A stretch of 64,000 nucleotides of DNA from positions 2,903-66,902 of the forward strand of contig CANKGV010000014.1 of assembly GCA_947481575.1 (NCBI GenBank). The letters are read 5' to 3'. The translations under genes were made by a program, and so were the position numbers. Origin of the DNA: Alphaproteobacteria bacterium. GTDB lineage: Bacteria; Pseudomonadota; Alphaproteobacteria; UBA2966; CAIVPW01. Below the pieces are notes generated by a model. It was not told where the DNA came from. It saw only the letters and a list, made by a program, of their open reading frames with translations, and did no database searches. Below are positions 10,731-43,338 of the stretch, piece after piece (the first letter of the stretch is position 1; every line of letters starts with the position of its first letter).

Positions 10731-11321
10731 ATGGCGCCGCAAAAGCTTGGCACCGTCCGCATCATTGCGGGCCGCCACCGCGGCCGCCGCATCAGCGTGC
10801 CGGAAGACAACGTGCGCCCGACCGGCGACCGGGTGCGGGAAGCGATGTTCAATGTGCTGGCCCACAACTCGTGGCGCGGCGCCACCCTGCCCGCGGGCGC
10901 CCGCGTGTTGGACGCGTTTGCCGGGACCGGCGCGCTAGGCTTTGAGGCGCTGTCGCGCGGCGCGGCGGAAGTGATGTTCCTGGAAACCGACGCCCGCACC
11001 CGCAAGGCACTGGGCCGCACCATCGACGAGCTGGACGAGGCCAAGCGGGCGTATGTGCTGCCGCGGGATGCCACGAACCCCGGGCCGCCGATCGGCAAGC
11101 AGCGCTTCGACTTGATGTTTGCCGACGCGCCCTATGGCACAGGGCTAGGCGTGATCGCGATCGATGTGTGCGCGCGGTTCGGCTGGCTGACCAATGGCGC
11201 GGTGGTGGTGCTGGAACTGGACGGCACCGACCCGTTCGAGCCGCCCCGCGACTTCACCGTGGTGGACGACCGCAGTTACGGCCGCACGCGGCTGGTGTTC
11301 CTGGAATACACCGCCACCTAG
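10731..11321 (+). CDS. rsmD: 16S rRNA m2G966 methyltransferase
   Basis: VRIIAGRHRGR, RPTGDRVREAMFN, LDAFAGTGALGFEALSRGA, RSYGRT. Start ATG 10731. Confidence 0.93.
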   Translation: MAPQKLGTVRIIAGRHRGRRISVPEDNVRPTGDRVREAMFNVLAHNSWRGATLPAGARVLDAFAGTGALGFEALSRGAAEVMFLETDARTRKALGRTIDELDEAKRAYVLPRDATNPGPPIGKQRFDLMFADAPYGTGLGVIAIDVCARFGWLTNGAVVVLELDGTDPFEPPRDFTVVDDRSYGRTRLVFLEYTAT

Positions 11322-12290
11322 CTACCGCGCGGCGGCGAACTTCTCGACCGCGTTGCGCGACGGTTGGATCGAGCGCAGGTAGTCGTAGATGGTGCCGAGA
11401 TCGAACTCGGTCATCCCGGAGAATTCCCACCACGGCATGACCGTATTGGGCTCGCCCGGCGCCACCTTCATCTTGCGATGGTCCTCTTCGGTGTTGGACC
11501 GGAAGCGGGCGATGAACTGTTCGCGCGTCCATTTGCCGATACCGGTCTCGTTGTCTGGCGTGATGTTGGCGGAGCGCACCAAGTACTGGCCCGGCTCGTT
11601 GAACTCCCTTCCGCCGGCAAACGGCACCCCAACCGGGTTGCCTTGCGCGTCCATCCTGGTATGGCAGTGGCCGCAGCCGGCGGCCGTGACCATGTACTTG
11701 CCGTAGGCGATCGCTTCCTTGGACGGCGGACGCTGCACGAACTGCGCATCGTGCGGCAACGTACGGACGAGCAGGTTGACCGGAAAATCGAGTTGGTTCG
11801 GCGGCGGCACGTTCTTGACGGTCGGGATCGTGCGCAAATAGGCGATCACCGAATACAGGTCGTCACGTTCCAGGGTGCCGTAGTCGGCATAGGGCATGAC
11901 CGGGAACAGCGCGCGGCCGTCTTTGGAAACGCCGGCGGTGATGGCGCGCAGCAACTCGCCGTCGGTCCATTCGCGCAGGGCGCCCTGGGTGATGTTGCGC
12001 GAGTAGACGACGCCCGGCACGCCATGGCCCTGGTGGAAGGCGCGGCCGCCGCCGAACTGGGTTTCTGGCACCGGCGGACCGGCAAAGGCGTCGGCCACCG
12101 GCTGCGAATGGCAACCGCGGCAGCCCATGACGTTGTTGACGAGGTAGCCCCCACGGAGAAGGCGATCGGTGGTGCGGTCGATCGCCAGCTGCGAGGGGCC
12201 CGCCACATTGGGGTAGTGCAGGAAGAAGTACCCGGTAGCGGCGCCGATCAGCACCACAACGGCCAACAAAATCAACCCGACTACCCGCAT
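11322..12290 (-). CDS. Diheme c-type cytochrome with N-terminal membrane anchor
   Basis: Two heme motifs, CRGCH and CGHCH, each followed by NIT and MP(Y/W) segments as in cytochrome c subunits of membrane dehydrogenases. Hydrophobic N-terminus. Confidence 0.88.
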   Translation of the reverse strand: MRVVGLILLAVVVLIGAATGYFFLHYPNVAGPSQLAIDRTTDRLLRGGYLVNNVMGCRGCHSQPVADAFAGPPVPETQFGGGRAFHQGHGVPGVVYSRNITQGALREWTDGELLRAITAGVSKDGRALFPVMPYADYGTLERDDLYSVIAYLRTIPTVKNVPPPNQLDFPVNLLVRTLPHDAQFVQRPPSKEAIAYGKYMVTAAGCGHCHTRMDAQGNPVGVPFAGGREFNEPGQYLVRSANITPDNETGIGKWTREQFIARFRSNTEEDHRKMKVAPGEPNTVMPWWEFSGMTEFDLGTIYDYLRSIQPSRNAVEKFAAAR

Positions 12291-12344
12291 GGCATCCCCT
12301 CAGCGCAAACGCTGGCGCACCATAATTCGGATGGGGGCGCGGGG

Positions 12345-12411
12345 CTAGCGGGCGGCGGTGTTGACGATGCAGCGAAACACCGACCGCAGCACAAAGTCGC
12401 CGCGCCAGATG
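12345..12411 (-). pseudogene. Detached copy of the 3' end of the SNase-like gene at 17123-17620
   Basis: 12352-12411 matches 17130-17189 at 56 of 60 nt. Both have an in-frame TAG at the same relative position. It translates IWRGDFVLRSVFRCIVNTAAR* versus IWRGDFVLPSVFRRIVNTAAK*. Confidence 0.85.
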
Positions 12412-12451
12412 GCGAAGGCGGCCGCCAGTTTTGCCCCGACCCTGACCAAAG

Positions 12452-13939
12452 TCAGTTTGGCTGAAATCCCGCTGGCAGGTCCGCGTCCACCCACAAGGTG
12501 CCGTCAATTGTGGTGTCGGCTAGATTGGCCGAAGTGAGCCGGGAGTACGACAGGTCGGTCCGAGTAAGGTCGGCGCCTCGCAGGTTCACCCCGAAGAGAT
12601 CGGCCCCCTGCAAATCGGCGCCGGTGAGGTTGGCGCCAGCCATGACCGCGCGCCACATCACCACATCCTCCATTTTGGCCATGGTTAGGTTGGCGCGGTC
12701 CATACGTGCGTCGTGAAACCACGAATCCGTCAGGTCGGCGCCGGTGAAGTCCGCGTCGTTCATGCGCGCCTCGCGCAGATCGACCGCCTTCAGCACGGCG
12801 CCAGTGAGCCGGGCGCCGATGAACTGAATCTTGCCTGCGGCCGCACCGGTGAGGTCCGCGCGGGTAAGGTCGGCGCCATCGAAGCGGCTCTCGAACAGCA
12901 TCGTGCCAACCAACTTAGCCGCGGACAGATTCGCGCGCTTCAGATCCGCGCGGTTGATATTGGCCCCAGAGAGATCGGCGCCAGCGAGGTTGGCACCCGA
13001 GAGAGTCGCACCATGCAAGTTGGCACCGGAAAGATCGGCACCGGCGAGGTTGGCACCGGTCAGGTCGGCGCGCTTCAGGTTTACCCCGCGCAAATCGCAC
13101 CGAGCGCAGCTGCGCGCCCTTGCGATCAATTGGTCCTTTTCAGTCTGCCCCGGCGCAGGCAACCGGGCGACACGCTCTGCCGCGTCTACAATCGGATTGG
13201 CTAGAACGAGCTCGAATCTCGTCGAACTCTCGAATTGCCCTTCGGTCGGCAGACGGGTGACCGCATCGATCGCGCCTTGCCCTGGTCTGCGGAAGTTGTG
13301 GACCTCCATGGCCAACTTCAGGCCTGCCGCCGGATCGTCCTTGCGGCATGCGCGCTTGATATAGGACGCGTGATAGTCGGCCTCGCCGGCAAGCCGGGGC
13401 AAGTCCTGGCATTGCCAGTCAAACTCGCCGTACTGGCCCAACAGATACCCAGACAGGGTCACACCGTTCTCACGAATGCTCGGCGGCAGCCGGGAATCGG
13501 TGACCATGCGAACACCCACCAAGAAGCCAGTGTCGTCGAACAGCGCCGAGGCAATGATCGGGATCGCGAAGACCGAGGTGTACTGGTACAGCGCGACCTG
13601 GGTCGGCAGGCTACGCGCCCGCGCCCAATACTCGGGTTCGTCGTCGTACCGGAAATACACTTCGTGGTAGCCGCCGCCCGGTTCGGCCGGGCACTTGCCA
13701 AATTCGGTCCAGCCTCCCAGCGGCCGAGCCGGTGGGCCGCCATTGGTGCCACAGGCAAAATCGATGAACTCATCGACCGGCAATTCTCTGGCATGGGACC
13801 CCAGCTTCAAGTCCCATAACGACGGCGCGTACAACCCTGCATCTGCCGCCACGTTCTGACCCGTTGCGGCTCCAGCCGCTACGAACGCGCCGAGTACCGT
13901 GGCAAGGCCGAGGTTGCGCAGAGGAGAGCCAAAGCCCAT
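12452..13939 (-). CDS. Secreted protein: Cys-containing N-terminal domain of unknown function fused to pentapeptide repeats
   Basis: Signal peptide from ATG 13939; N-domain with FACGTNGGPP; then CARCDL followed by a long A(D/N)LxG pentapeptide array. Confidence 0.85.
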   Translation of the reverse strand: MGFGSPLRNLGLATVLGAFVAAGAATGQNVAADAGLYAPSLWDLKLGSHARELPVDEFIDFACGTNGGPPARPLGGWTEFGKCPAEPGGGYHEVYFRYDDEPEYWARARSLPTQVALYQYTSVFAIPIIASALFDDTGFLVGVRMVTDSRLPPSIRENGVTLSGYLLGQYGEFDWQCQDLPRLAGEADYHASYIKRACRKDDPAAGLKLAMEVHNFRRPGQGAIDAVTRLPTEGQFESSTRFELVLANPIVDAAERVARLPAPGQTEKDQLIARARSCARCDLRGVNLKRADLTGANLAGADLSGANLHGATLSGANLAGADLSGANINRADLKRANLSAAKLVGTMLFESRFDGADLTRADLTGAAAGKIQFIGARLTGAVLKAVDLREARMNDADFTGADLTDSWFHDARMDRANLTMAKMEDVVMWRAVMAGANLTGADLQGADLFGVNLRGADLTRTDLSYSRLTSANLADTTIDGTLWVDADLPAGFQPN

Positions 13940-13944
13940 CGGTA

Positions 13945-14484
13945 CTATCGCCCCGCGCCCGCGGCCGGTGCGTATTCCCTGCAGCGGGTTCCATTGGCGC
14001 CCCAGAACGCCACACATTCCTCGCGTGTGGGAGGCGGCTTGCCCACAAACGTGGCGACGATGAACGCGGCCAGCGCATCCGCTTCCCGCTTGGTCAAGGT
14101 CACGCTGCCCTGCCCCGGCGCTTGCGTACCAAGCTGGGCTCGAGTCATGCCGAAGCACCGGTCGTCCTCGTATGCTCGGGCATCGAAATAGGGCATCTCG
14201 GTCGTGGGCCGCCCGCACAGAATGGTTTCCGCAAGCTGTGCCGCGTCCAGCTGGGTCTCGCGGAGATTGGCGCCCCGGGGCGCCTGCGGGTCGTCCGGAA
14301 GCCCGTTGCCGCTCCAGCCGTGACAATCCTTGCACGGCACCTTGTTGACCCACACGCTCTTGCCGAGGTTTACCGCGGCCGCGTCCTGCGCGACGGCGGG
14401 GCCTCCCCCGGCTGAAAGCACAACTACGAACAGAGAGGCGACGGCAGCGACCGCCACGCCAAGAAACAAGAACTTGCCGACCAT
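13945..14484 (-). CDS. Monoheme c-type cytochrome
   Basis: Signal peptide, CKDCH heme motif, distal EMPYF (probable axial Met), plus additional Cys residues. Confidence 0.88.
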   Translation of the reverse strand: MVGKFLFLGVAVAAVASLFVVVLSAGGGPAVAQDAAAVNLGKSVWVNKVPCKDCHGWSGNGLPDDPQAPRGANLRETQLDAAQLAETILCGRPTTEMPYFDARAYEDDRCFGMTRAQLGTQAPGQGSVTLTKREADALAAFIVATFVGKPPPTREECVAFWGANGTRCREYAPAAGAGR

Positions 14485-14524
14485 TGACCCCCCGGCTTTG
14501 GCATTACATCTCGGGCGAAACGAA

Positions 14525-14555
14525 GTGGGGGGGCCGGCGAACCGGCCCCACCCAC
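14525..14555 (-). terminator. Intrinsic terminator or stabilising hairpin between the PQQ dehydrogenase and cytochrome c genes
   Basis: 13-bp stem with one bulge. On the minus strand the loop is UUCG and it is followed by UUCGUUUC. Confidence 0.6.
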
Positions 14556-14577
14556 ATTCTGCTTTCGGTTCTGCGCC

Positions 14578-16356
14578 CTAAAGCGAGAACACGTAGAGCA
14601 TCGCAGCGGGGAGTTGATCCTTCAACTCCGGCCAATCGTCGCCGCCCGCGCCGGGTGCACCGACCATGACAGCGATGAACTGCTTGGTGCCAATGGAGTA
14701 GGCCATTGGGGGTGCCTTGATCGCGGTGCCGGTTTCGAACCGCCACATCTCCGCCAGCGTCTCATCGTTGTGCGCGGTGATGCTGCCGTCGATGTTCGCG
14801 GTGAAAACGAGCCCGCCCGCGGTGGCAAGCATGCCCGACCGGTTGGAGTGCGGAAGCGGCAGCCGCGCCTTCAATGTGCCGGTCGTCACGTCCAGGATCG
14901 TGAGCAGGCCGTGCAGCGTTCCGGCGTGCGTTGCGGTTCCCGGCTTGGAGCGGCCCTTTTCATCGATCCCCCCATTTGCCAGCGTGACCGACGGGACAAT
15001 CTGCCTGGTATTGCAGCCGTCCTCGCCACCCGAGTAGGCGAGGCGCTTGACCGGGTTGTAGGCCGGTGGTTGCCAACGCAGACCGCCTTCCAGCGGCGGG
15101 CAAGCGGTCTTGGCCACCGTGTCGGCACGAGCCCAACGCGTCGCCGGAATGTAGGTCTGGAGTGCTTTGCCCGGATCGTATTCCAATGGCTTGCCGGTCT
15201 TGGGATCGATCCCGGCCGTCCAGGTCACCTTTTCGTTGAACTGAACCGCATTCAAGAACTGACCATTGGTGCGGTCGAGCTGGTAGGCAAAGCCGTTGCG
15301 GTCGAAATGCAACACCATCTTCTTGCCGGCCTGCCCTTTGAAGTCGGCGTCGATCAGCATGTGCACGCCCTGGGCGTCGTAGTCCCAGGACTCATTCGGC
15401 GTGTACTGGAAGAACCACTTGATCTTGCCAGTATCGATATCGAATGCGACCGCGCTGTTTGAATAGAGGTTGTCGCCAGGGCGGAATTCCGGATCAAACA
15501 TCGGCACGGGCTGCGCCGTGCCCTCGATGATCACGCGCTGGGCGACGTCATACGAGCCGGTCGTCCACAGCGAGGCCCCGCCGGTCTTCCAGGCGTTGTG
15601 GTCATCCTTCCAGGTCTCGTTGCCGGGCTCGCCCGGACGAGGAACTGTATACGTGCGCCAAATCTCCTTGCCGGTGACGGCATCGATCGCCTCCAACCAG
15701 CCAATGGTGCCCGAGTCACCCTTGGCATTGGCGACGAGAATCTTGCCCTCCACCGCCAATGGTGCCTGGGTCATACCCTCCTTCTCCACATTGATATTGG
15801 AGCCCTTGGGATGGGGCACGCGTGCGATCTGCAGGTCGAACTTGATGTCGCCGGACGTGCGATCGACAGCGACGACGCGTCCGTCGGTCATGCCGAGGTA
15901 CACCGAGTTGCCCCACATCGCTTGTCCGCGGGTACGCGCCTGCTCGTCCTTCGACAACGACACGTCGGTGCGCCAGACCGGGACGAACCGATTACCCGGG
16001 CGCACGTCAATCTTGTAGAAGACGCCGCCGGCGTCGTCGAAGTACATGAACCCGTCGTCGACCATCGGCGCGTTCTCAAGCTGTACGTTCGGACGGCCAA
16101 GCAGCGCCGTGGTCAAGGGCACCGTGAAGGCAACCTTCAGATTCTTTACGTTGTTCTGGTTGATCTCACTCAGCCGCGAATAACGGTGCGAGCTGTAGTT
16201 CTGGAAGGTCGTAATCCAATTCTGCGGTTCGGCGTCAGCGTTTTCGAGACGCTGTTTGGTGACATCGGCAGCATGTGCCGGAAGCGCCAAGACGGCAGCA
16301 AGAACTCCACTCAAAATCGTGGTTGTCGCCAACCGCGATGCGAAAATTTCTCGCAT
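14578..16356 (-). CDS. PQQ-dependent dehydrogenase, methanol/ethanol (type I ADH-like) beta-propeller family, atypical clade
   Basis: RLENADAEPQNW..RYSRL.EIN..NV..L, TGKEIW Trp-docking motif, RPGDNLYSNS, YTPNESWDYD, LATAGGLVF, C-terminal YVFSL. RBS GGGAGGAAGG precedes ATG 16356. Confidence 0.9.
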   Translation of the reverse strand: MREIFASRLATTTILSGVLAAVLALPAHAADVTKQRLENADAEPQNWITTFQNYSSHRYSRLSEINQNNVKNLKVAFTVPLTTALLGRPNVQLENAPMVDDGFMYFDDAGGVFYKIDVRPGNRFVPVWRTDVSLSKDEQARTRGQAMWGNSVYLGMTDGRVVAVDRTSGDIKFDLQIARVPHPKGSNINVEKEGMTQAPLAVEGKILVANAKGDSGTIGWLEAIDAVTGKEIWRTYTVPRPGEPGNETWKDDHNAWKTGGASLWTTGSYDVAQRVIIEGTAQPVPMFDPEFRPGDNLYSNSAVAFDIDTGKIKWFFQYTPNESWDYDAQGVHMLIDADFKGQAGKKMVLHFDRNGFAYQLDRTNGQFLNAVQFNEKVTWTAGIDPKTGKPLEYDPGKALQTYIPATRWARADTVAKTACPPLEGGLRWQPPAYNPVKRLAYSGGEDGCNTRQIVPSVTLANGGIDEKGRSKPGTATHAGTLHGLLTILDVTTGTLKARLPLPHSNRSGMLATAGGLVFTANIDGSITAHNDETLAEMWRFETGTAIKAPPMAYSIGTKQFIAVMVGAPGAGGDDWPELKDQLPAAMLYVFSL

Positions 16357-16555
16357 AACCTTCCTCCCAAGGTTTGGCAGAATACCGAAGCGTTTTGGAT
16401 TCAGTGGTCCCACCAGGATGGGGCCTCCCCCATGGCGGCCCCATGAGCACAGTGGCGGGAACCGAATAAGTAAGTCAACCTACGGTCGCAGGCTCGGCGC
16501 CTTGCCGACTGTTCGCGCCTGCAACGTTAGTTTCCGTTTCCTTACAGGTGCAGCG

Positions 16556-17101
16556 ATGGATCCGTTTGACGACTCAAGGGCATTTACGGTGTTCTTGCTA
16601 CGCTTCGTGGCCGTATTTGCGCTGTTCTGCGCTGCTCTGCCGGGACCGGTCGCAGCACAGGATTTGGCGGGGCGGGCCCAGGCACTGCAGGCGGATCAGT
16701 TGATCGTAAACGGTGCACGGATCTCGCTGTTCGGCATCGACGCGCCGGACCCCGACCAGGACCGCCAGTGCACCTTGGGGACACAGAACTTCGGCTGCTA
16801 TTCCAATGCACGGCGGCAGTTACAGATCTTGCTCGACGAGGGCCCGGTCGCTTGCATCGACAGCGGCAAGCGGAACTATGTGAACTTCCCGTACATGACT
16901 TGCACCATTGCCGGGAAGGACATCGGCGAGGCGATGGTACGCACGGGCAACGCGCTGGCCTTCCTTCCCCAGAGCAACAAGTACGCGGATGCCGAGAAAG
17001 CCGCCAAGGCCGACAAGGTCGGCATCTGGCAGACCGGCATCCGGTTCAAGATTCCCTGGGAATGGCGTAACGAAAACGACCGCCCGATCTTCGGACCCTA
17101 G
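16556..17101 (+). CDS. Thermonuclease (SNase-fold) family protein, degenerate active site
   Basis: LFGIDAPDPDQ, C..G..DIGEAMVRTGNA, Y..AEKAAKADKVGIW, PWEWR. Signal-like N-terminus. Start approximate. Confidence 0.82.
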   Translation: MDPFDDSRAFTVFLLRFVAVFALFCAALPGPVAAQDLAGRAQALQADQLIVNGARISLFGIDAPDPDQDRQCTLGTQNFGCYSNARRQLQILLDEGPVACIDSGKRNYVNFPYMTCTIAGKDIGEAMVRTGNALAFLPQSNKYADAEKAAKADKVGIWQTGIRFKIPWEWRNENDRPIFGP

Positions 17102-17122: not shown

Positions 17123-17620
17123 CTACTTTGCGGCTGTGTTGACGATGCGGCGAAACACCGATGGCAGCACAAAGTCGCCGCGCCAGATGCCGGCGCGGTC
17201 CTTGGATGCCTGTTGCTCGATGGCTAGGTATTCGGGGGCCTCGGCGCGGACGGCGAGCGCCCAGCCGAACTGAACCATGACCGCCGCGAGGTCGCGGCCG
17301 TTGGCCCGGCAGCGGGCGGTGGCGTAGCCGGTGTCGTCGATGCCGGCGGGCGTGCATTCAACCGCGCGGCCGGCCGTGAGCCCGGTTAGGGCATCGCGAG
17401 CCTGGCCGCCGCACGCCCAGGGCTTTTCCAGCACCGTGCAGGTTTGATAGCGCTCCGGCGCGTCGATGCCGAACAGGCGGTAGGTGGTGCCGGAAATTTC
17501 GAGGGTATCGCCGTCGATGGCCGTGACCGCTTCCAGTGCGGAAACGCCAAAGGGGATCGCTGCAGCCGCCGCGGCCAGCATCAGAATGAGCGTTGCGACG
17601 AAGGAACGGCGCACCAGCAC
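17123..17620 (-). CDS. Thermonuclease (SNase-fold) family protein
   Basis: AIDGDTL, YRLFGIDAPE, C...PWACG, DLAAVMVQFGWA, AGIWRGDF. Confidence 0.88.
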   Translation of the reverse strand: MLVRRSFVATLILMLAAAAAAIPFGVSALEAVTAIDGDTLEISGTTYRLFGIDAPERYQTCTVLEKPWACGGQARDALTGLTAGRAVECTPAGIDDTGYATARCRANGRDLAAVMVQFGWALAVRAEAPEYLAIEQQASKDRAGIWRGDFVLPSVFRRIVNTAAK

Positions 17621-17776: not shown

Positions 17777-19579
17777 CTAGCGCCGGCCGAACAGCCGCTC
17801 GATATCGGCGAGCTTGAGTTCGACGTAGGTGGGGCGGCCGTGGCCGCACTGGCCGGAGTGCGGGGTGGCTTCCATCTCGCGCAACAGCGCGTTCATCTCG
17901 GTGCCGGTGAGCTGGCGGCCGGCCCGCACGCTGGAGTGGCACGCCATCGTGGCACACACCTCGGACAGCCGATCCTTAAGCGACTGGGCGGCGTCCAAGG
18001 TGCCGAAGTCGTCGGCGAGGTCGCGCACCAGGGCGGGAACGTCGGTCTTCCCGAGCAGCGCCGGGACTTCCCGCACCACCACGGCGCCGGGGCCGAACGG
18101 CTCCACCAGCAGGCCTAACTCGCCGAGTTCTTCGGCGCGCGCGAGGATGCGTTCGGCCTCCAGGGTGCCGAGTTCCACCACTTCGGGAACCAGCAGGAGC
18201 TGGCGGGCGATGCCATTGGCGGCGAGCTGGTTCTTGATGCGCTCGAACACCAGGCGTTCGTGGGCCGCGTGCTGGTCGACAATGACGATGCCGTCGCCGG
18301 TTTCGGCCACCACATACGTGCCGTGGAGCTGCGCGCGGGCGGCCCCCAGGGGGCTGGCGATGGAGTCCGATTCCGCCTCGGCGATGCGGGCGGCAGGGGC
18401 TTCGAGCACCGCATAGCCCGCTTGCGTGGGCGCCGCAAAGCCGGAGGACGGTGCTTGGAACGCGGCGGCTTCGGCCAGGCGGTAGGGCGACGGCGCGGCG
18501 CGCAGGGTGAACTGGGGCGGCGGCAGGTTGGCGCGGGCAACGCCCAGCGCAGCCGTGCCGACCGTGGACGCGGCGCGGTGGCCGGCGCCCGCCAGCGCGT
18601 GGCGCAGTGCACCAACGATCAGGCCGCGCACGAGGCCCGAATCGCGGAAGCGGACTTCGGCCTTGGCAGGGTGGACGTTCACGTCCACCAATTCGGCGGG
18701 CAGATCGAGGTAGAGCGCCAGCACCGGGTGGCGGTCGCGGGCGACGAGGTCTTGGTAGGCGCCGCGCACCACGCCCAGCAGCAGGCGGTCGCGCACCGGG
18801 CGGCCGTTGACGAACAGGTACTGCGACGCCGCCGAGGGCCGGTGCAGCGTGGGCAGACCGATGTAGCCGGTGAGCCGCACGCCATCGCGCTCGGCCTCGA
18901 TCTTCAGCGCATTGTCGGGGAACTCGCGGCCGAGGACGCGGCCTAAACGCTCCAAGCGCCGGTCCGCCACATCGCCCAGCACCACCGGCATGTTCAGCAC
19001 GTTGCGCCCGGCGTCGTCGACGGTGAAGGCGACATGGTCGGCCACCATCGCCAAGCGGCGTACGGCGTCGACGACGTGGCCGGCTTCGGTGCGCTCCTGC
19101 TTCAGGAACTTGAGCCGCGCGGGCACCGGATAGAACAGATCGCGCACTTCGATGCGGGTGCCCCCGGGGAGCGCGGCCGGGACCGGGGCGGAGACGCGGC
19201 CGGCATCGACTTCGACGGACCAGGCTTCGGCAGCGCCCTTGGGGCGGGACGCGATGGTCATGCGGCTGACGGCGCCGATGCTCGGCAGCGCCTCGCCGCG
19301 AAAGCCGAGGGTGGCGATGTGGACCAGGTCGTCGTCGGGCAACTTGGAGGTGGCGTGGCGCTCGACGGCGAGCAGCAGGTCGGCCGGGCTCATGCCGGAG
19401 CCGTCGTCGGCCACCACGATGGCGCGCTGGCCGCCGCCTTCCAACCGCACGTCGATGCGGCGGGCGCCGGCATCGAGGGAGTTTTCGACCAGTTCCTTCA
19501 CGGCCGCAGCGGGGCGCTCGATCACCTCACCGGCGGCGATCTGGCTGACGAGCGTGTCGGGTAAGCGGCGGATGGTCAT
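17777..19579 (-). CDS. mutL: DNA mismatch repair endonuclease MutL
   Basis: [62 protein letters not shown]. Confidence 0.98.
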
Positions 19580-19754
19580 GTGAGGCGAAGTATACACCGG
19601 AGGCCACGCCATTCTCCGCCGTCATGCGCGGGCTTGGCCCGCGTATCCACGACTTGCCCGCGTCACGCGTCACGCGGCACGGTGGCGGGGATGGCGGGAC
19701 TCGTTTGCGTGGCGCGCTGGCCGCGCGACGCCCGGCCATGACGTCGAAACAAAC

Positions 19755-32216: not shown

Positions 32217-33265
32217 GCGAACGGCGCGTCCTCGGGGCGAGTGGCGGTGGCGCGGCGCCCAAGGTACCACAACAGACCGGCGGTTAGGACCGCACCGACG
32301 CCCACGGCGGGCCATGCCAGGGCCGGGATCACGGTGGCCGCCAGCGCCAGCACGATCAGGAACGCATCGAGGTAGACCATCAGCAGCACCACGGCCGCGT
32401 GGTCGCCCATCGACGCGGCGGCGCGCTGGTAGAAGTGCTCGCGGTGAGCCCGCCACGGCGCCTGGCCGCGCAGCACGCGGCGCAGCAGAGTGATGCTCGC
32501 ATCCGCCACGAAGAACAGCGGCAGCAGGATGGCGGCGGCCCAGCCACCATGGGCGGCCAATTGCAGCAATAGCCAGCCCAGCAGGTAACCGAGCGGGATG
32601 CTGCCGACATCGCCCAAGAACACCCGCGCCGGGCGCCAGTTCCACAGTAGGAAGCCGAGCGCGGCGGCGGCGGCGGTGAGACCGTAGAGCGCATGGATCG
32701 GCGCCGCACCGAGCAGAACAGCGACGACGGCGATGCCGAAGCCGACGGCGATGGTTTGGGTGCCGGCAATACCGTCGATCCCGTCCATGAAGTTGAACAG
32801 GTTGATGAACCAAACCCAGATCACCGCCGCGAGCGTGAGTTCCGCCCAGGCCGGCAGGCCCAGAAAAAGCCCCGGCGGAATTGTGGCGAGGCCCCCAACC
32901 ACCGCCAGCACCTGCGCGGCGAGACGCACGAGGGGCGAGAGATTGCGGCGCAGGTCATCGATCCACGAGATCGCGCCCAGCGCGGCGGCGATCACCAAGA
33001 TGCGGTCGGGGGCGGCGGTGCCGGCGCCGAACGCGGCCGGGGCCGACAGCGCGGCGACACTCCACGTGAGCAGCAGGGCGACCACCGGACCGACGCCGCC
33101 GCCGTTGGGCGTCGGCACGGTGTGGCTGGAGCGGTGGTTGGGGCTTTCCAGCGCCCCGATCAAGCGCAGGAACCGCAACGTGAGGCCGGTGCCGAGCCAC
33201 GAAATCACGAACGCAGCGACGGTCAGGCCACCGAGCCATAGAGCGAGGTTGGCTTCCAGACTCAC
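32213..33265 (-). CDS. Polyprenyl-phosphate HexNAc-1-phosphate transferase (WecA/WbpL, MraY-like family)
   Basis: RSSHTVPTPNGGG, WIDD, NLFNFMDGIDG, VFLGDVGS, AHREHFYQR. Start GTG 33265. Confidence 0.92.
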   Translation of the reverse strand: MSLEANLALWLGGLTVAAFVISWLGTGLTLRFLRLIGALESPNHRSSHTVPTPNGGGVGPVVALLLTWSVAALSAPAAFGAGTAAPDRILVIAAALGAISWIDDLRRNLSPLVRLAAQVLAVVGGLATIPPGLFLGLPAWAELTLAAVIWVWFINLFNFMDGIDGIAGTQTIAVGFGIAVVAVLLGAAPIHALYGLTAAAAALGFLLWNWRPARVFLGDVGSIPLGYLLGWLLLQLAAHGGWAAAILLPLFFVADASITLLRRVLRGQAPWRAHREHFYQRAAASMGDHAAVVLLMVYLDAFLIVLALAATVIPALAWPAVGVGAVLTAGLLWYLGRRATATRPEDAPFA

Positions 33266-34437
33266 GGTTCGTCGGCCGGAGTGAGGGCGCGGGCGAGCAC
33301 GGCGGCGAGGCCGAGGCTGGCGAGCCACCAGTTCTGCCATAGGCCGTACGACGCCGCGCCGAAGCTGAGCGCGGTGGCCAACACTGCCGCAGCGGGCATG
33401 CGCGGGCGCGCCGGAAGCTTGGCGATGCCGATGCCGACGAGGGCGATCACTGCGGCCAACGCGAGGCCGCCGGGCAGGCCGAGTTCGAGCCACGCCTGCA
33501 GTGCGACGTCATGGGGATGCAGGGACAACGCTGGGCCGCCTTTGAATACCGGCACGTCACCGCCGGGGATGCTGCGGGACGCATCGAGGCCCCAGCCGAG
33601 CAGCGGCTTCTCGGCGATGCGCGCGGCCGCGAAGTCCCAGATATAGAGGCGGTGCAGGATCGACGAACGCTCCTCGGCCAGCGCCGAGCCGAACCGCTCC
33701 GGCGCAATGCTGCCCGCGACCAACGGCGCCACCAGCACGGCAACCATCGCCGCCAACGTGACGGCCACGACGGCGCGGCGGCCGCCCCACCACGCCAGCG
33801 CAAATGCAGCGCCGCCGGCGACGAGGGCGACACGGGCGGTGACACTTTCGCCAAGCGCCACGAGCGCGAAGGCGGCGAGCACCGCGGCGAGCGCGGCGAT
33901 CCGTGACGAGGGCCACAGCCGCGCCGCCAGGGGCCACACCATCAGGGTGAGCACGGTGAGGCCGGGGTTGAGCACGGTCAGTTCAAGGTGTTCGTCACCG
34001 GGCTTGGTCCCCCGGGCGAAGTTCGCGATCGGCAGGTCGCCCAGAATCTCGACGGCGAGCAGGATGCAGCCAAGGACGTAGCCGGCGACTGCGGCGCGCA
34101 GCACGATGGCCGCCCCGGACGCGTCGGGCCGGGCGGCGCCCCAGGCCACCAGGGCCGTCGCGAACAGGACCGCAAGCGACAGCGCCAAATGCAGTGCATC
34201 GGCGGGGACCACGGCCAACGGCGCAGTGACGGCCGCCCAGACGATCAGCGCCGCGAGTACCCACGCCACCGGCAGGCGCCCGAGGGCGGCGATGCCGCCA
34301 CGGAGCGCGGTCCACGCCAGCAGCGGCACGGCGGCGAGCAACAGCAGCGCGGTTTCGCCCTGGGAGGCGACGGCGCCGAGGGGCAGGAACATCAGTGCAG
34401 CAAACGCCACGGCATAGGTGCGGACGCGATCGCTCAT
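33262..34437 (-). CDS. O-antigen ligase (Wzy_C) family protein
   Basis: Multi-TM protein with RLYIW, PLLGWG and a C-terminal HPHDVALQAWLELG segment. Confidence 0.85.
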   Translation of the reverse strand: MSDRVRTYAVAFAALMFLPLGAVASQGETALLLLAAVPLLAWTALRGGIAALGRLPVAWVLAALIVWAAVTAPLAVVPADALHLALSLAVLFATALVAWGAARPDASGAAIVLRAAVAGYVLGCILLAVEILGDLPIANFARGTKPGDEHLELTVLNPGLTVLTLMVWPLAARLWPSSRIAALAAVLAAFALVALGESVTARVALVAGGAAFALAWWGGRRAVVAVTLAAMVAVLVAPLVAGSIAPERFGSALAEERSSILHRLYIWDFAAARIAEKPLLGWGLDASRSIPGGDVPVFKGGPALSLHPHDVALQAWLELGLPGGLALAAVIALVGIGIAKLPARPRMPAAAVLATALSFGAASYGLWQNWWLASLGLAAVLARALTPADEP

Positions 34438-35582
34438 GCGGCTTCCGGCCAAGCGCGGCCGGCCACCGCGCGGTACGCGGCGAGCGAGTCCGCGACGAAC
34501 GCGCCGACGGAAAACTCCGCCACCGCCCGTTCCCGGCCGCGCCGGGCCATCGCCGCGCGGAGCGCCGGGTCGGTGAGCAAGCGGCGGAGCGCGGCGGCCA
34601 GCGCGACGCCATCGCGCGCAGAAACCAGCAGGCCGTTGTCGCCGTCCTTCACCACTTCGCGGCACCCGGGCACGTCGGTGGTGACGATGGCGCGGCCACA
34701 TGCGGCCGCTTCGATCAGCACGCGCGGCAGGCCCTCGCGGTAGGACGGCATGCACACTACGTGACAGCGCGCGAACTCGGCTGGCATGTCGGTGGCGAAC
34801 CCGCGCCATTCGACCACCCCTTCCCGCTCCCACCCGCGGATCGCGGCCTCGCCGATGTCGGTGGGATTGTCGGGGTCGGTGCGGCCCGCCAGGCGGAAGG
34901 TGGCAGCGATGCCTTCGGACTTCAGAATACGCGCCGCTTGGACGAACTCGCGCGCGCCTTTGTCGCCAATCACCCGCGCCGGAAACAGCACGACCGGCGG
35001 GCCCGCGGGTTCGGGCATGGGGGCGAATTGCGCCATGTCGACGCCGCAGCCGCGGATCATCACAACGGTGCCGGGATCGACCAGACGGCCGCGGAGAAAC
35101 AGGTTCAGGTCGTCCGGGTTCTGGAAGATCACCCGCGCGTTGGGGTGGCCGAGGGCGAACCCGTATAGGCGCTTTACCAGGGCGCGCTGCAGGCTGGCGA
35201 TGCCGCCCTGGATCAGAAACAGGTAGCCCAATCCGGTGATCGCGTGGACCACGCCGGGCACGCGGCGCAGGCGCGCGATGGCGCCGCCATACAGCACTGG
35301 CTTCATCGTGACCGCATGCACGATGCCGGGGCGCAGTTCGCCAACGAGCGCCCAGATGCGAGCGATCAGCTTGAGTTCACCGAGCACGGCGCGCGCGCCG
35401 CGGCGGAGCGGGATTTCGTGCAGCGTGACGCCGGCGGCGCCAATGATCTCCCAAGCAGCCGCATCGAACGGAAGTGCGACATGGACATCGCACCCCGCGG
35501 CCCGCGCTGCCTTTGCAACGGCGAGCCGGTGGGTGACGAAGAACGGCGCATCGTTCAGGAGGAACAAAAGCCGCAGCGTCAC
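34434..35582 (-). CDS. GT4 family glycosyltransferase (WbpU/CapM-like)
   Basis: FFVTHRL, VTMKPVLYG, ITGLG, IFQNPDD, GCGVD, PSYREGLPRVLIEA, TTDVPGCRE. Confidence 0.92.
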   Translation of the reverse strand: MTLRLLFLLNDAPFFVTHRLAVAKAARAAGCDVHVALPFDAAAWEIIGAAGVTLHEIPLRRGARAVLGELKLIARIWALVGELRPGIVHAVTMKPVLYGGAIARLRRVPGVVHAITGLGYLFLIQGGIASLQRALVKRLYGFALGHPNARVIFQNPDDLNLFLRGRLVDPGTVVMIRGCGVDMAQFAPMPEPAGPPVVLFPARVIGDKGAREFVQAARILKSEGIAATFRLAGRTDPDNPTDIGEAAIRGWEREGVVEWRGFATDMPAEFARCHVVCMPSYREGLPRVLIEAAACGRAIVTTDVPGCREVVKDGDNGLLVSARDGVALAAALRRLLTDPALRAAMARRGRERAVAEFSVGAFVADSLAAYRAVAGRAWPEAA

Positions 35583-36427
35583 CGCCGCACTCCGACGTAG
35601 TTGTAATAGAGGAACAGCGGCAGGATGGCGGCGGTGCCGGGCGCGGTTTCGAAGGCGCTAAAGCGGTCGAACACCGGGCGGTTCGGGAACATGCGGAAGT
35701 GCCGAATGCTCTCGCACACGACACCCGCATCTGCGAACAGGCGGCGCAAATTGGCCGCGGTAGTGACGCGCTCCACGCCGTAGGGGTGGGCACGGCCATC
35801 GTCGCCGGTGAGTTGGATCACGCGGGGCAGACCGCGGCGGATCAGCAGCTCCAGTTGCAACGCCGGGTTCCAGGCGTTGGCTTCCGAGATCACCAGGTGA
35901 CCGCCGGGAGCGAGCAGCGAGGCGATCTTACGCACGATCTGTTCGCGCGGCTCGAGATGGTGGAACGTTTGCTCCATCCAGATCAGGTCGTACTGCGCCC
36001 CGGCCGGCAGGTCGAATACCGAGGCGAACTGGAACCGGCACCGCTGGGCGTGGCCGAGCCGCTGCATCACCGCGAGACGTGCCTGCGCGCCGGCCACGCG
36101 GTCGGCGCGCAGGTCGATGCCGGTAACATCGCCACCTTGAAGCGCCAGCCACAACGATTCGGTGCCGAGGCCGCAGCCAACTTCCAGCACCCGCGCGCCG
36201 GGCTGGGCACGCAACAGGGCTTCGGCTTCGGCGATCTGGGACGCGTAGTAGCGCCGGGTGCGGCCGGTGAACGAGCGCTGGAAGCTGCCGTAGTAGTGCC
36301 GGAACGTCTCCGCGGCGGCGCCGTCCAACAGGCCGCCCTCCAACCACACCGACAGGAACGCAGCGATGTCCGGCGCGCCGGCGAGCCGGGCGGCAGCATC
36401 GGTGGGTGCGGGCACCGGCACCGTCAC
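35579..36427 (-). CDS. Class I SAM-dependent methyltransferase
   Basis: VLEVGCGLG motif I, YDLIW, TFHHL, PGGHL. Start GTG 36427 approximate. Confidence 0.85.
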   Translation of the reverse strand: MTVPVPAPTDAAARLAGAPDIAAFLSVWLEGGLLDGAAAETFRHYYGSFQRSFTGRTRRYYASQIAEAEALLRAQPGARVLEVGCGLGTESLWLALQGGDVTGIDLRADRVAGAQARLAVMQRLGHAQRCRFQFASVFDLPAGAQYDLIWMEQTFHHLEPREQIVRKIASLLAPGGHLVISEANAWNPALQLELLIRRGLPRVIQLTGDDGRAHPYGVERVTTAANLRRLFADAGVVCESIRHFRMFPNRPVFDRFSAFETAPGTAAILPLFLYYNYVGVRR

Positions 36428-37794
36428 GGCGCTGCGGTGATACGGAAGCACGAGCGCGCCGTCATACGCTCGGCACGCACGGACCCGAACCGGCCGGTGG
36501 CGCGGCGGAACTGGGCCAGCGCTTCGCGCACCTCGCCCACCGCGATGCCGGGGAACTTTTGCCGCGCGTAGGCATCCGCACGTGGGCCGACGCGGATGCG
36601 GCGCGTCAGCGGGGCAAGGGTTGCGGTGAACCGGTCGCCAAGCAAGCGCGCGGCGTCGCCTGGGCCGGGGCGATAGTTGGTTGGCTCGACCCCTAGTTCG
36701 ACGAGGCCATCGGCGACCCGTTCGGCGGCGAGCCGGCCGTCCACGGCGGTGATGTAGCGCGCGGCTTCTCCCGGTGCCCGAGGCGCGGGCGCGAGGATGC
36801 CATCGATGCCCTGGTGCAGCAGGGCAACCAATTCGTCTTCGGTGAACGCCTCGCGGCTGACGGCGTGGGGCAAATGGGAATCCAGCACATCGTCGGTGGC
36901 CGGCCGGTAGGCGATGACGGGGCGTCCCAACAGGTACGCCTCGACGCCGGTGGTGCAGCTGTTGTGCACGAGCACATCGGCGCCGGCGATCCAGGGGACC
37001 ACCGAGTCTTCGAACGCTACCGTTACGTTCGCGACGCCGGCCGTCTCGCGGCGCCATTCGTCGTGATTCTCCGACGGGTGCGGACGCACGACGATGTGGT
37101 GATCGGGGAAGGCGCGGCTCAGCACCGGTACCGCTGCAACGAACCCGCGGTACAGGACTTCGAGGTAGTCACGCCAGCGGCGGAAGAACGTGAGTTCCGC
37201 TTCGGAGGCGATAGTGCCGCGCTTCTGGAGCGCTTCGATCCAGAAGTTGTAGCCCATGAAATGGTTGTAGCGGCTGAAGTTGGTAGCGACCAACACGTAG
37301 CGGCCGAAGCGGCGTTGCAGTGCCGCCACCTCGGGCGCGAACACGCCCCGCAATTCCGGGCGCAGCACATCGAAGCGAGGGTTGCCGGTGACGCGAATCT
37401 TGCTCGCTGCTTCGGGCGCCTTGCGGAGTACGTCCGCCGCTTGGACCCCACCCCAAGCGAAGAAGCGTTCGGCGACCGCCAGCGAGTCGTTCGAAATGCG
37501 CTCATGGAGATAGGTATCGGCATCGCGGTAGACGAGGCCTTCTTCGCAGCACGCCACAACATGATTTCCCATGGCGCGGAGTTGGCCGAAGCCCTTGGTC
37601 TTGGTGCGCGAGACGCTTTTGTCGAGGTACACGCCGCGCGGCAGGCGGGCGACATTCTTGACCATGCTGTTCTGGTCGCCGAGCACGACGTCATAGCCGC
37701 GCTCGGCCATTACCGCCGCTTGCAGCACCTTGGCGTGGAACTCCCTCGCCTTGGTTTCAATCGGCAGCAGGAGCCAGGGACGGACCTTGGACAT
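36424..37794 (-). CDS. Surface carbohydrate biosynthesis protein (TIGR04396-like, predicted GT-B fold)
   Basis: LPIETKAREFHAK, CEEGLV, FAWG, TGNPRFDVL, VVRPHPSE, HNSCTTGVEAYLLGRPV. Confidence 0.75.
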   Translation of the reverse strand: MSKVRPWLLLPIETKAREFHAKVLQAAVMAERGYDVVLGDQNSMVKNVARLPRGVYLDKSVSRTKTKGFGQLRAMGNHVVACCEEGLVYRDADTYLHERISNDSLAVAERFFAWGGVQAADVLRKAPEAASKIRVTGNPRFDVLRPELRGVFAPEVAALQRRFGRYVLVATNFSRYNHFMGYNFWIEALQKRGTIASEAELTFFRRWRDYLEVLYRGFVAAVPVLSRAFPDHHIVVRPHPSENHDEWRRETAGVANVTVAFEDSVVPWIAGADVLVHNSCTTGVEAYLLGRPVIAYRPATDDVLDSHLPHAVSREAFTEDELVALLHQGIDGILAPAPRAPGEAARYITAVDGRLAAERVADGLVELGVEPTNYRPGPGDAARLLGDRFTATLAPLTRRIRVGPRADAYARQKFPGIAVGEVREALAQFRRATGRFGSVRAERMTARSCFRITAAP

Positions 37795-37857
37795 GGTCGG
37801 CGCAACCTAACAGCAACGGCGGATGGCCGCGAGAATTCCTGCTAGGTTCCCGCCACC

Positions 37858-39354: not shown

Positions 39355-39361
39355 GGCGCGG

Positions 39362-40276: not shown

Positions 40277-40291
40277 AGGGGTACGCAACCG

Positions 40292-41281: not shown

Positions 41282-41285
41282 CCGT

Positions 41286-43329: not shown

Positions 43330-43338
43330 GGCACGATC

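Follow-up and report, generated by a model that had tools for sequence, protein, structure and literature searches.

A PQQ-dependent dehydrogenase homologue from a large uncharacterised clade with a D-x-D motif, a remodelled metal site and no vicinal disulfide

The locus and its genes

The window (the whole 64-kb stretch of DNA that was analysed) includes a gene for a homologue of the PQQ-dependent dehydrogenases. The features at and around this gene are as follows.

11322-12290, minus strand: membrane-anchored dihaem cytochrome c, 322 aa, with CRGCH and CGHCH (sequence, and a faint Pfam cytochrome match)
12320-16150, no strand: divergent tract of about 3.8 kb (sliding-window identity against the sister contig L089)
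12452-13939, minus strand: secreted pentapeptide-repeat protein, 495 aa (PF00805, 1.5e-48)
13945-14484, minus strand: monohaem c-type cytochrome, 179 aa, with C51-K-D-C-H55 and a CG.PG..MP Met ligand (weak Pfam cytochrome matches)
14578-16356, minus strand: PQQ-dependent dehydrogenase homologue, 592 aa, an eight-bladed beta-propeller of the 'RW' subclade (open reading frame, Pfam, AF2, Foldseek)
16270-16356, minus strand: Sec-type signal peptide, residues 1-29, with inferred cleavage between LALPAHA and AD (sequence)
16359-16368, minus strand: strong Shine-Dalgarno sequence GGGAGGAAGG, whose end is 2 nt short of ATG 16356 (direct reading of the sequence)
16556-17101, plus strand: secreted SNase-like protein of 181 aa in which the catalytic motifs are degenerate, QADQL and ISLFGIDAPD (PF00565, alignment)
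17123-17620, minus strand: SNase-like secreted protein, 165 aa, which keeps the IDGDT and YRLFGIDAPE motifs (PF00565, alignment)

The open reading frame of the dehydrogenase is real and its frame is intact. We prefer ATG 16356 to GTG 16413 as the start because of the Shine-Dalgarno sequence at 16359-16368. The signal peptide, in which there is no twin-arginine motif, predicts export by Sec and thus a periplasmic enzyme, and AF2 models residues 3-23 as a low-confidence helix. In a Pfam scan the protein matches PF01011 (2e-48, 165.7 bits, cut-off 26.7). The AF2 model has a pLDDT of 88 and a pTM of 0.89, with confidence of 72-85 in the 10-residue blocks that hold the metal-site residues; used as a Foldseek query it matches 30 PQQ-dehydrogenase structures with probability 1.00, the best being PedH, ADH IIB and XoxF at a TM of about 0.8. 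A scan for promoters and terminators around the gene gave no usable element, and the single match in an Rfam scan was at chance level.

The 179-aa cytochrome is presumably the electron acceptor of the dehydrogenase. It has further conserved Cys residues and its Met ligand is conserved, but there is no PDB relative at an E value better than 0.05 and no significant NCBIfam match, so that it has no detectable tie to any solved cytochrome c. In 58 of 80 other loci a homologue is encoded no more than 6 kb from the dehydrogenase gene. The pentapeptide gene starts 5 nt past the cytochrome stop, and its product has an N-terminal domain of about 270 aa of no assigned family, followed by the repeats. 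Pentapeptide partners are present in 36 of the 80 loci, in a long form beside RW-clade enzymes and in a shorter form beside other alphaproteobacterial members; by analogy the protein may be called PedD-like, and PedD of the ped cluster is the precedent (PMC12997753). The conserved module is the dehydrogenase, a distinct monohaem cytochrome c and a pentapeptide protein, joined in some lineages by SNase-like proteins, homologues of the 181-aa protein recurring within the module in 9 other loci. In this comparison neighbour clusters were kept only if they neither overlapped nor lay antisense to the dehydrogenase gene (shadow ORFs in high-GC DNA). The dihaem cytochrome gene, downstream on the same strand, is outside the conserved module, being found only in this locus and its sister, and its product is a possible onward electron carrier. 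Pfam and called-gene scans of the 64-kb window found no genes for PQQ biosynthesis (pqq), lanthanide uptake, XoxJ/PedG or regulators, and among the called genes of the locus there is none for a periplasmic binding protein of the xoxJ/pedG type. A Bauldia as the source organism was considered and dropped, since its MutL has no more than 64% identity to that of any species representative, and the matches are spread over several orders of alphaproteobacteria.

Comparison with the sister contig L089 shows 57-87% nucleotide identity within the divergent tract and 96-100% in the flanks; dS is 0.8-2.4 for genes inside it and 0.035-0.098 for those on its flanks. Within the tract are the dehydrogenase gene, from about codon 70 onward, and the genes for the monohaem cytochrome c and the pentapeptide protein; the dihaem cytochrome gene lies outside it. 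Because all three lie in the one tract, they look as if they had been exchanged together.

Residues at the metal and PQQ sites

Residue equivalences were taken from phmmer against PedH (6zcv), from a comparison of PDB chains with a 47-sequence profile, and from a MAFFT alignment that took in PedH, ADH IIB, XoxF2, XoxF5, MxaF and E. coli mGDH. All three reproduced the alignment that had been made by eye in the original prediction. Conservation was counted over 121 sequences, the query and its 120 closest database relatives. The sites are listed below.

15067-15087, minus strand: G-G-L-R427-W428-Q-P, where Arg replaces MDH Asn394 and the PedH Asn; 'RW' subclade marker (MAFFT alignment)
15376-15387, minus strand: W324-D325-Y326-D327, the catalytic Asp and then the +2 Asp characteristic of lanthanide-type enzymes (three alignments)
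15508-15522, minus strand: G-T-A-Q282-P, residues 279-283, where Gln replaces the metal-binding Asn (three alignments)
15709-15723, minus strand: K-G-D214-S-G, residues 212-216, where Asp replaces the metal-binding Glu (three alignments)
15925-15948, minus strand: D-E-Q-A-R-T-R-G loop, residues 137-144, from which the Cys-Cys ring is gone (alignments to PedH, XoxF and MxaF)

W-D-Y-D is exactly where the original prediction had placed it, and the KGDSG, GTAQP and DEQARTRG that it had named are also in the reading frame. In all three alignments D325 and D327 are equivalent to D323 and D325 of PedH (D-F-D) and to the D-Y-D of XoxF; D325 also aligns with MDH D303. D325 is present in 120 of the 121 sequences and D327 in every one (100, 100 and 97% in three subclades), so the +2 Asp that had been put forward as the lanthanide mark is nearly invariant across the clade.

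D214 aligns with PedH E199 and MDH E177, and is Asp in 118 of the 121 close relatives and in 100, 93 and 92% across the three subclades. Q282 aligns with PedH N281 and MDH N261, a position at which 88 of the 121 have Gln and 31 have Asn. Opposite P-C-C-D of PedH a 4-residue deletion takes out the vicinal Cys-Cys ring and leaves no CC in the aligned loop, 4CVB, 7WMD, 9M2C and 4MH1 being outside the PDB alignments used for this comparison. The change from Glu to Asp and the missing ring are thus genuine, as claimed, and are found clade-wide. The conservation of D-x-D, Asp214 and the state at 282 across 121 close relatives indicates that they are not due to chance.

The residues expected to hold PQQ are in part retained. 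By alignment R143, in the loop that has lost the ring, corresponds to MDH R109, the conserved Arg that binds PQQ, and W264 and R353 are equivalent to MDH W243 and R331; each of the three is present in 121 of 121. Together with T196, D325 and the metal carboxylates they are invariant or nearly so in the clade sequences. The remodelling of the site is nevertheless wider than had been proposed, as Arg427, the equivalent of MDH Asn394, is also in 121 of 121, and in the MAFFT alignment two PQQ-pocket Trp residues are lost, the equivalent of MDH W476 being Arg and the Trp of GWGG/GGW being Ala.

A clade without the Cys-Cys ring

That the protein belongs to a divergent clade of PQQ dehydrogenases was part of the original prediction, and the clade proves to be real and large. 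About 215 relatives form a superclade (NJ bootstrap 99) with Asp at 214 and D-x-D nearly without exception, and with the CC pair in none of its members. It is found in alphaproteobacteria, Vicinamibacterales and Polynucleobacter, and genomes from lakes and soils have it in abundance, often as several tandem copies. Complete genomes with clade members include Vicinamibacterales OZ241978.1 and Polynucleobacter rarus NZ_NTGB01000001.1, and Alsobacter ponti is a carrier in culture. The query falls in the 'RW' subclade (NJ bootstrap 90). The sequences without Cys-Cys share only 41-59% identity, and since the +2 Asp is kept in 97-100% of some 215 sequences that have diverged so far, we argue that it is functionally required. 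Identity of the clade, including the query, to all solved structures is 20-28%.

With regard to existing protein families, the dehydrogenase scores 388.6 bits with the NCBIfam model TIGR03075, for PQQ-dependent dehydrogenases of the methanol/ethanol family, below the cut-off of 480.05, and seven other sequences without Cys-Cys score 333-465 bits, all also below it, whereas two relatives with Cys-Cys scanned in the same way score 534 and 571. It is far from the cut-offs of TIGR03074, for membrane glucose/quinate dehydrogenases (111.3 bits, cut-off 832.65), and TIGR04528, for acido-empty-quinoprotein group A (316.6 bits, cut-off 650). NCBI names clade members only as 'PQQ-binding-like beta-propeller repeat protein', and a list from 2025 of PQQ dehydrogenases that have been characterised includes no clade member. 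Literature searches on PQQ enzymes without the disulfide, on type labels and on the ligand residues of mGDH gave nothing relevant. By its sequence we place the dehydrogenase in a large uncharacterised branch of the superfamily of eight-bladed PQQ alcohol dehydrogenases.

The original prediction had treated the changes from Glu to Asp and from Asn to Gln as a pair, and this is half right. Gln282 is restricted to sequences with Asp214, the sole exception being P0091, which has Glu214 with Gln282. However in the wider clade Asp214 is found more often with Asn282 (112 sequences) than with Gln282 (96 sequences). It is thus Gln282 that depends on Asp214 and not the reverse. The distribution of Gln282 is patchy, in at least two sublineages, and on these sequences it is best seen as an optional and later change within the clade. 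The nearest relatives that have the Cys-Cys ring carry Glu, Asn and D-x-D, so the clade appears to descend from lanthanide-type ancestors.

Comparison with characterised and related enzymes

PedH/ExaF (ADH type 2b, 6ZCV/6ZCW) is the best match, with E values of 3e-66 by phmmer and 4e-97 by profile and a Foldseek TM of 0.78-0.82. PedH/ExaF and the query have in common a soluble propeller exported by Sec (predicted for the query), the PQQ-binding Arg/Trp/Arg, and the catalytic Asp with the +2 Asp, in D-F-D and D-Y-D respectively, and the cytochrome c and pentapeptide-repeat genes alongside recall pedF and pedD. However identity to PedH is only 28%, and unlike PedH the query has no Cys-Cys ring, has Asp for Glu199, Gln for Asn281 and Arg for the Asn of GAKNW, and has lost the Trp of GWGG. 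In contrast to PedH/ExaF, its locus lacks a PedG/XoxJ-type binding protein and SoxYZ, SoxH and rhodanese accessory genes.

In the case of XoxF (XoxF1-5; 4MAE, 6DAM, 6OC5, 7O6Z) the fold, D-Y-D and the PQQ-binding Arg/Trp/Arg are shared, as is a distal pair of Cys residues, C419/C448 in the query, that matches the ICP...C pair of MDH. Both have a dedicated c-type cytochrome gene adjacent, but that of the query does not appear XoxG-like: M. tundrae XoxG matches the HMM of the cytochrome family weakly at 17.8 bits, against 169 bits for the Skermanella partner discussed below. Identity to XoxF is 25-28% (Foldseek), the NJ tree places the query apart from the XoxF/MxaF clade, and the query lacks CCDxVNRG, the Glu of GGEFG, the Asn of GT/SxNP and xoxJ.

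The closest proteins with canonical chemistry, at 44-45% identity, are the Skermanella sp. TT6 plasmid enzyme WP_201082443.1 (L085) and its relatives, which are uncharacterised and are placed inside or next to the superclade with bootstrap 99. Like the query, L085 has D-x-D and a gene of the same cytochrome c family directly downstream, so this family partners enzymes both with and without Cys-Cys. Unlike the query, L085 and L076 keep ACCG...NRG, Glu and Asn, and L085, the one of the two that was scanned with TIGR03075, exceeds its cut-off with 571 bits.

Among the characterised enzymes examined, E. coli mGDH (Gcd) is the only one with D-x-D, no Cys-Cys and ligand positions that are neither Glu nor Asn. 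In the MAFFT alignment it has D-M-D, HVTC--RG in place of the Cys-Cys loop, D/N for the Glu and T for the Asn, substitutions that differ from the Asp and Gln of the query. It also has an N-terminal membrane domain, whereas the query has only a predicted cleavable signal peptide, and its electron acceptor is ubiquinone and not a cytochrome c.

Metal, cofactor and electron transfer

The +2 Asp is reported to be essential for lanthanide coordination (PMC8546591; PMC11996626), and known lineages of the Ca type have A, S or T at this position (PMC11996626). Judged by the D-x-D motif alone, use of a lanthanide by the query enzyme is plausible. We propose, at about even chances, that it is a working periplasmic quinoprotein, most likely with a lanthanide, that acts on an alcohol-type substrate and has the adjacent cytochrome as its acceptor.

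For the cofactor, the metal, the path of electrons and the class of substrate our inferences are as follows. After export by Sec the enzyme would hold PQQ by the retained Arg143, Trp264 and Arg353, with Asp325 as the putative catalytic base. The ion held by Asp214, Gln282, Asp325, Asp327 and PQQ would be a hard cation and most probably a lanthanide in the 3+ state, and the site would retain the three-carboxylate charge of XoxF and PedH on a different scaffold. The substrate would be of alcohol type and, because two pocket Trp residues are lost, probably bulkier than methanol. Electrons would go to the dedicated monohaem cytochrome c (13945-14484) without a Cys-Cys ring, the dihaem cytochrome (11322-12290) being a possible next carrier, and the pentapeptide-repeat protein may be a PedD-like accessory. 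Several points count against the proposal. In ExaA, as cited in PMC12997753 and PMC8546591, the disulfide ring is reported as necessary for efficient electron transfer to the cytochrome; there is the precedent of mGDH; the pqq, lanthanide-uptake, xoxJ/pedG and regulator genes are missing from the window; and AF2 confidence is only 72-85 around the metal-site residues.

The mGDH precedent leads to an alternative that we consider possible but somewhat unlikely, that this is the same working PQQ dehydrogenase with its cytochrome but with Ca2+ or Mg2+ as its physiological metal, or with no strict choice of metal, D-x-D being inherited or structural. E. coli mGDH is given as a calcium/magnesium enzyme (PMC11996626 Table S1) in spite of D-M-D, the absent Cys-Cys and the altered Glu and Asn positions; the query is without the canonical bidentate Glu that all solved lanthanide enzymes have, and the 64-kb window has no lanthanide-uptake genes. 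However across some 215 divergent members the +2 Asp essentially never drifts to A, S or T, the three-carboxylate charge that suits a 3+ ion is retained, and the nearest canonical relatives are of the lanthanide type. Furthermore the authors who compiled the mGDH data suspect that mGDH too uses lanthanides (PMC11996626).

The protein could also be a PQQ-like propeller that has lost its PQQ/metal redox role and become a binding protein or taken another cofactor, as might be thought from its low TIGR03075 score, shared by the seven other sequences without Cys-Cys, from the noncommittal NCBI name, and from the changed PQQ contacts (Asn394 and the W476 equivalent to Arg, the GWGG Trp to Ala). We regard this as improbable, as R143, T196, W264, D325, R353 and the metal carboxylates are retained, and the c-type cytochrome gene is conserved alongside in most loci; a dedicated neighbouring cytochrome makes sense only for a redox enzyme. 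Purifying selection is also strong, with dN/dS of 0.064 against an allele of 91.6% identity. The same figure and the intact frame tell against the query copy being a decaying or relaxed paralogue with odd residues that are mere noise. F195M, W278E and E328A are indeed unique to the query lineage, at positions 84-98% conserved among relatives, and GC3 is 0.78, below the 0.85-0.90 of the neighbours. However the query deviates at 11 of 202 conserved columns where the clade median is 10, the identical protein is carried by at least 17 contigs, from at least four different samples, and every flagged feature of the site is clade-wide, so that decay is largely refuted and in our view very improbable.

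Beyond the lanthanide proposal there is a broader reading, speculative and on present evidence unlikely, in which the clade without Cys-Cys is a distinct active-site class with its own metal selectivity, ring-free electron transfer and a portable, recombining cassette. The Asp/(Asn or Gln)/Asp/Asp site would then select unlike both XoxF/PedH and the Ca enzymes, for another part of the lanthanide series, for another hard trivalent ion, or with true promiscuity. The cassette of dehydrogenase, cytochrome and pentapeptide protein would be exchanged among populations by recombination, and the SNase-like periplasmic proteins of some lineages would be possible Ca/Ln-binding accessories.

Significance for the family

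Metagenomic surveys tally lanthanide-dependent enzymes by D-x-D alone (PMC11996626; bioRxiv 10.64898/2026.07.10.737718). The clade would enter such tallies, yet it is without the Glu ligand of every solved lanthanide enzyme. Should its members use lanthanides, the notion of a lanthanide site broadens and the Asp/Gln variants are natural tuning experiments; if they do not, the surveys count too many such enzymes. Whether electron transfer to a cytochrome needs the Cys-Cys ring is a second question for which the clade offers a natural test, one cytochrome family being the partner of relatives with and without it. The query enzyme is thus useful for testing both metal choice and electron hand-over in PQQ dehydrogenases.

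The query gene and its metal site

The query dehydrogenase is encoded by an intact reading frame, with GGGAGGAAGG immediately 5' of its start ATG at 16356 (minus strand, by direct reading), and begins with a Sec-type signal peptide (…LALPAHA/AD). It matches the Pfam PQQ propeller model (2e-48), and its top solved relative by phmmer is the lanthanide enzyme PedH (E 3e-66). Residue equivalences were taken from three independent alignments, namely phmmer against PedH, a 47-sequence profile against the PDB, and MAFFT with PedH, ADH IIB, XoxF2, XoxF5, MxaF and E. coli mGDH as references, and the three were concordant.

14578-16356, minus: query dehydrogenase
15376-15387, minus: W-D325-Y-D327, equivalent to PedH W-D323-F-D325
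KGDSG: Asp214, equivalent to the metal-binding PedH Glu199
GTAQP: Gln282, equivalent to the metal-binding PedH Asn281
DEQ----ARTRG: 4-residue gap opposite PedH P-C-C-D

Given this concordance, every sequence detail listed in the original prediction is correct, coordinates included: the D-x-D assignment, the Asp and Gln at the metal-binding Glu and Asn positions, and the absence of the vicinal disulfide from DEQARTRG.

A clade without the vicinal disulfide

A search of a large protein collection gave more than 120 cluster representatives with 51-98% identity to the query, almost all from metagenomes and several from single genomes, and a scan of species-representative genomes gave at least 485 relatives. 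Among 121 sequences (the query and 120 relatives) Asp327, the +2 Asp of D-x-D, and the PQQ-contact residues Arg143, Trp264 and Arg353 are each found in 121/121, catalytic Asp325 in 120 and Asp214 in 118; at position 282, 88 sequences have Gln and 31 have Asn.

Homologues from 80 loci were aligned and a neighbour-joining tree was built with references. All sequences with Asp214 and without Cys-Cys lie within a single superclade (n=125, bootstrap 99), and XoxF, MxaF, PedH and ADH IIB fall outside it. The divergent clade that had been predicted is thus borne out, with the query apart from MxaF, XoxF and PedH and with Cys-Cys loss and Asp214 as shared characters. Three subclades are distinguished by residues 427/428, and Cys-Cys is found in no member of any of them.

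RW (bootstrap 90; holds the query): alphaproteobacteria including Bauldia and Hyphomicrobiales MAGs; Asp214 100%, Asp327 100%
AH: Vicinamibacterales, Xanthobacteraceae and Polynucleobacter rarus; Asp214 93%, Asp327 100%
NF/NY: other alphaproteobacteria; Asp214 92%, Asp327 97%

The flagged site features are therefore a property of the clade and not peculiar to the query gene. D-Y-D-E is shared by most of the clade; in the query and its two closest relatives residue 328 is Ala, accompanied by F195M and W278E. The query is otherwise a typical member, with 11 deviations at 202 conserved columns (clade median 10).

The remodelling of the metal site that had been predicted is real, and its extent was understated. 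Arg427, invariant in the RW clade, is at the equivalent of MDH Asn394, and two pocket tryptophans are replaced: the MDH Trp476 equivalent is not Trp in the query, and there is Ala in place of the Trp of GWGG (type I/II ADH) or GGW (MDH). With regard to the proposed paired E-to-D and N-to-Q swaps, both changes are real, but the pairing is not general, as in the three subclades Asp214 is found more often with Asn282 (112) than with Gln282 (96), and Glu214/Gln282 was seen once, in the relative P0091. Gln282 is patchy within the RW clade and is also found in two small, separately placed NF/NY groups (bootstrap 100 each). From these combinations and this patchiness, Cys-Cys loss and Glu-to-Asp are old, clade-wide events and Asn-to-Gln a later, repeatable one, tolerated on the Asp background.

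Two further groups were seen in Vicinamibacterales loci. A small group, above the TIGR03075 cut-off, has the Cys-Cys ring together with Asp at the Glu position, so Glu-to-Asp is possible without ring loss. Other loci encode, as a second PQQ-like propeller without Cys-Cys, a more divergent protein with about 31% identity to the query. D-x-D is kept in it, but the residues aligned with the Glu and the Asn are non-ligand ones and the Arg353 equivalent is Lys, which could be further site remodelling or loss.

CC + D/N/D-x-D group, all minus: L063 4185-6158, L047 3099-5726, L048 3119-4822, L062 4188-6143
Second propeller, all minus: L030 1523-3334, L034 1485-3374, L038 1345-3138, L043 1685-3460

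Place among known PQQ dehydrogenases

On TIGR03075, the NCBIfam model of the methanol/ethanol family (cut-off 480), the query scores 388.6 bits and seven other Cys-Cys-less sequences 333-465 (five clade representatives 417-457, two more divergent sequences 333 and 465), while Cys-Cys-containing relatives score 534 and 571. These scores below cut-off explain the NCBI name of clade members, which is no more specific than 'PQQ-binding-like beta-propeller repeat protein'. The query is 20-28% identical to every solved structure (Foldseek). The 30 biochemically confirmed PQQ dehydrogenases compiled in 2025 comprise only MxaF, XoxF1/2/4/5, ADH types 2a, 2b and 4, sorbose dehydrogenases and mGDH (PMC11996626 Table S1). 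Those with a reference in our tree (MxaF, XoxF, PedH/type 2b, ADH IIB/type 4) are all outside the superclade, sorbose dehydrogenases are only 20-22% identical to the query (Foldseek), and the query is far below the TIGR03074 cut-off for mGDH.

The closest proteins with canonical chemistry are a Skermanella sp. TT6 plasmid protein and one MAG protein, both uncharacterised and 44-45% identical. They carry Cys-Cys, Glu and Asn along with D-x-D, and for this reason the clade seems to have branched off from lanthanide-type ancestors.

The accessory module

The neighbouring genes are as follows.

11322-12290, minus: membrane-anchored dihaem cytochrome c, 322 aa (CRGCH, CGHCH), after a 161-nt gap from the pentapeptide gene
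12452-13939, minus: secreted pentapeptide-repeat protein, 495 aa, starting 5 nt past the cytochrome stop
13945-14484, minus: monohaem cytochrome c, 179 aa, downstream of the dehydrogenase on the same strand
16556-17101, plus: SNase-like secreted protein (PF00565), 181 aa, upstream of the dehydrogenase
17123-17620, minus: SNase-like secreted protein (PF00565), 165 aa, upstream of the dehydrogenase

The 179-aa cytochrome has C51-K-D-C-H55, a conserved CG.PG..MP and three or more other conserved cysteines. Its family has no relative in the PDB with an E better than 0.05, and its best NCBIfam match, at E 3e-4, reaches 20 bits where 200 would be needed; the family HMM gives 17.8 bits for Methylocella XoxG. 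A member lies within 6 kb in 58 of 80 other loci, and the family partners dehydrogenases both with and without Cys-Cys: the Skermanella enzyme (WP_201082443.1, locus L085) is followed by one at 10799-11269 (34% identity, 169 bits by family HMM), which indicates that the partnership is probably older than loss of the ring.

Pentapeptide-repeat genes occur in 36 of 80 other loci; every one of these is proteobacterial, and almost every one alphaproteobacterial. The long form, with 450-500 aa aligned, is confined to loci of RW-clade dehydrogenases. In the other subclades there are one or two proteins of about 220-250 aa that consist of repeats alone, with their genes often forming a convergent pair. 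The N-terminal ~270 aa of the 495-aa protein gave no Pfam match. A known case of such a gene adjoining a PQQ alcohol dehydrogenase and cytochrome is pedD-pedE-pedF, in which PedD is uncharacterised but growth on alcohols is impaired when it is truncated (PMC12997753).

SNase-like genes are present in 9 other loci (L013, L015, L018, L031, L053, L058, L066, L071 and L080; 10 genes, two being in L013), and in L053 and L071 lie between the cytochrome and pentapeptide genes. This recurrence in the module is far above chance, and we know of no description of the association. The proteins have two conserved Cys pairs, and most have lost the catalytic Arg and DGDT motif; the 165-aa copy retains both and the 181-aa copy does not. 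That they may bind metal in the periplasm is pure speculation.

In the sister contig L089 gene order is as in the window and the flanks are 96-100% identical, but a tract with sharp edges, from ~16150 (dehydrogenase codon ~70) to ~12320 (shortly before the dihaem cytochrome gene begins), has only 57-87% nucleotide identity. It spans most of the dehydrogenase gene and the 179-aa cytochrome and pentapeptide genes, for which dS is 0.81, 2.4 and 1.6 respectively, against 0.035-0.098 for flanking genes; dN/dS within the tract is 0.06-0.09, and the lower GC3 of its genes agrees with this. The simplest reading is replacement, by homologous recombination, of a three-gene cassette by a divergent allele, which would make these three genes one functional unit with the dihaem cytochrome outside it. 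The latter is 99% identical in L089 and absent from all other loci examined, and so probably does not belong to the conserved module.

Nowhere in the 64-kb window is there a pqq, lanthanide-uptake, xoxJ-type or regulator gene. Elsewhere in it are a surface-polysaccharide cluster at 33262-52400 (O-antigen ligase-like Wzy_C, MBOAT acyltransferase, polysaccharide deacetylase, sulfotransferase, methyltransferase, cytidylyltransferase, TPP enzyme and UDP-GlcNAc 2-epimerase) and a 725-aa protein (56552-58729, plus) with eight Sel1 repeats and peptidoglycan-binding and trypsin-like peptidase domains. For MutL (17777-19612, minus), identity does not exceed 64% in any of the 80 best species-representative genomes, drawn from Rhodospirillales, Sneathiella, Reyranella and Rhizomicrobium, so the host is an alphaproteobacterium without close sequenced relatives in that collection.

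Metal, substrate and function

The query has kept the fold and the PQQ-binding and catalytic residues, is under strong purifying selection and has a conserved dedicated cytochrome; at the metal position there is a conserved set of three carboxylates and one amide. We infer a periplasmic quinoprotein dehydrogenase that would hold PQQ and a hard cation, oxidise an alcohol-type substrate and reduce the adjacent cytochrome c.

Lanthanide use, as originally predicted, is a hypothesis. We would name a lanthanide as the most likely metal, with about an even chance, as the +2 Asp hardly varies in a clade that is otherwise very divergent, the closest relatives with canonical chemistry are of lanthanide type, and lanthanide coordination is reported to require this Asp (PMC8546591; PMC11996626). 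However, in the MAFFT alignment E. coli mGDH likewise combines D-x-D with altered ligands and the lack of Cys-Cys, and it has been characterised with Ca/Mg (PMC11996626 Table S1).

Many alphaproteobacterial genomes have two or three Cys-Cys-less dehydrogenase paralogues side by side (L017, L049, L061 and L074; also L021, L054, L056, L059, L065 and L082), and a genome can also hold several unlinked copies, as with the four on a single 3.17-Mb contig. The reshaped substrate range of the original prediction is likewise a hypothesis; that both pocket tryptophans are gone and that tandem paralogues are frequent (as in L017, L049, L061 and L074) suggests substrates that are diversified and larger than methanol.

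The clade is a branch of PQQ dehydrogenases without the disulfide, abundant but uncharacterised, in which the metal site is altered and an accessory module of its own is present. It is of mechanistic interest in that the ring has been lost yet the cytochrome kept.
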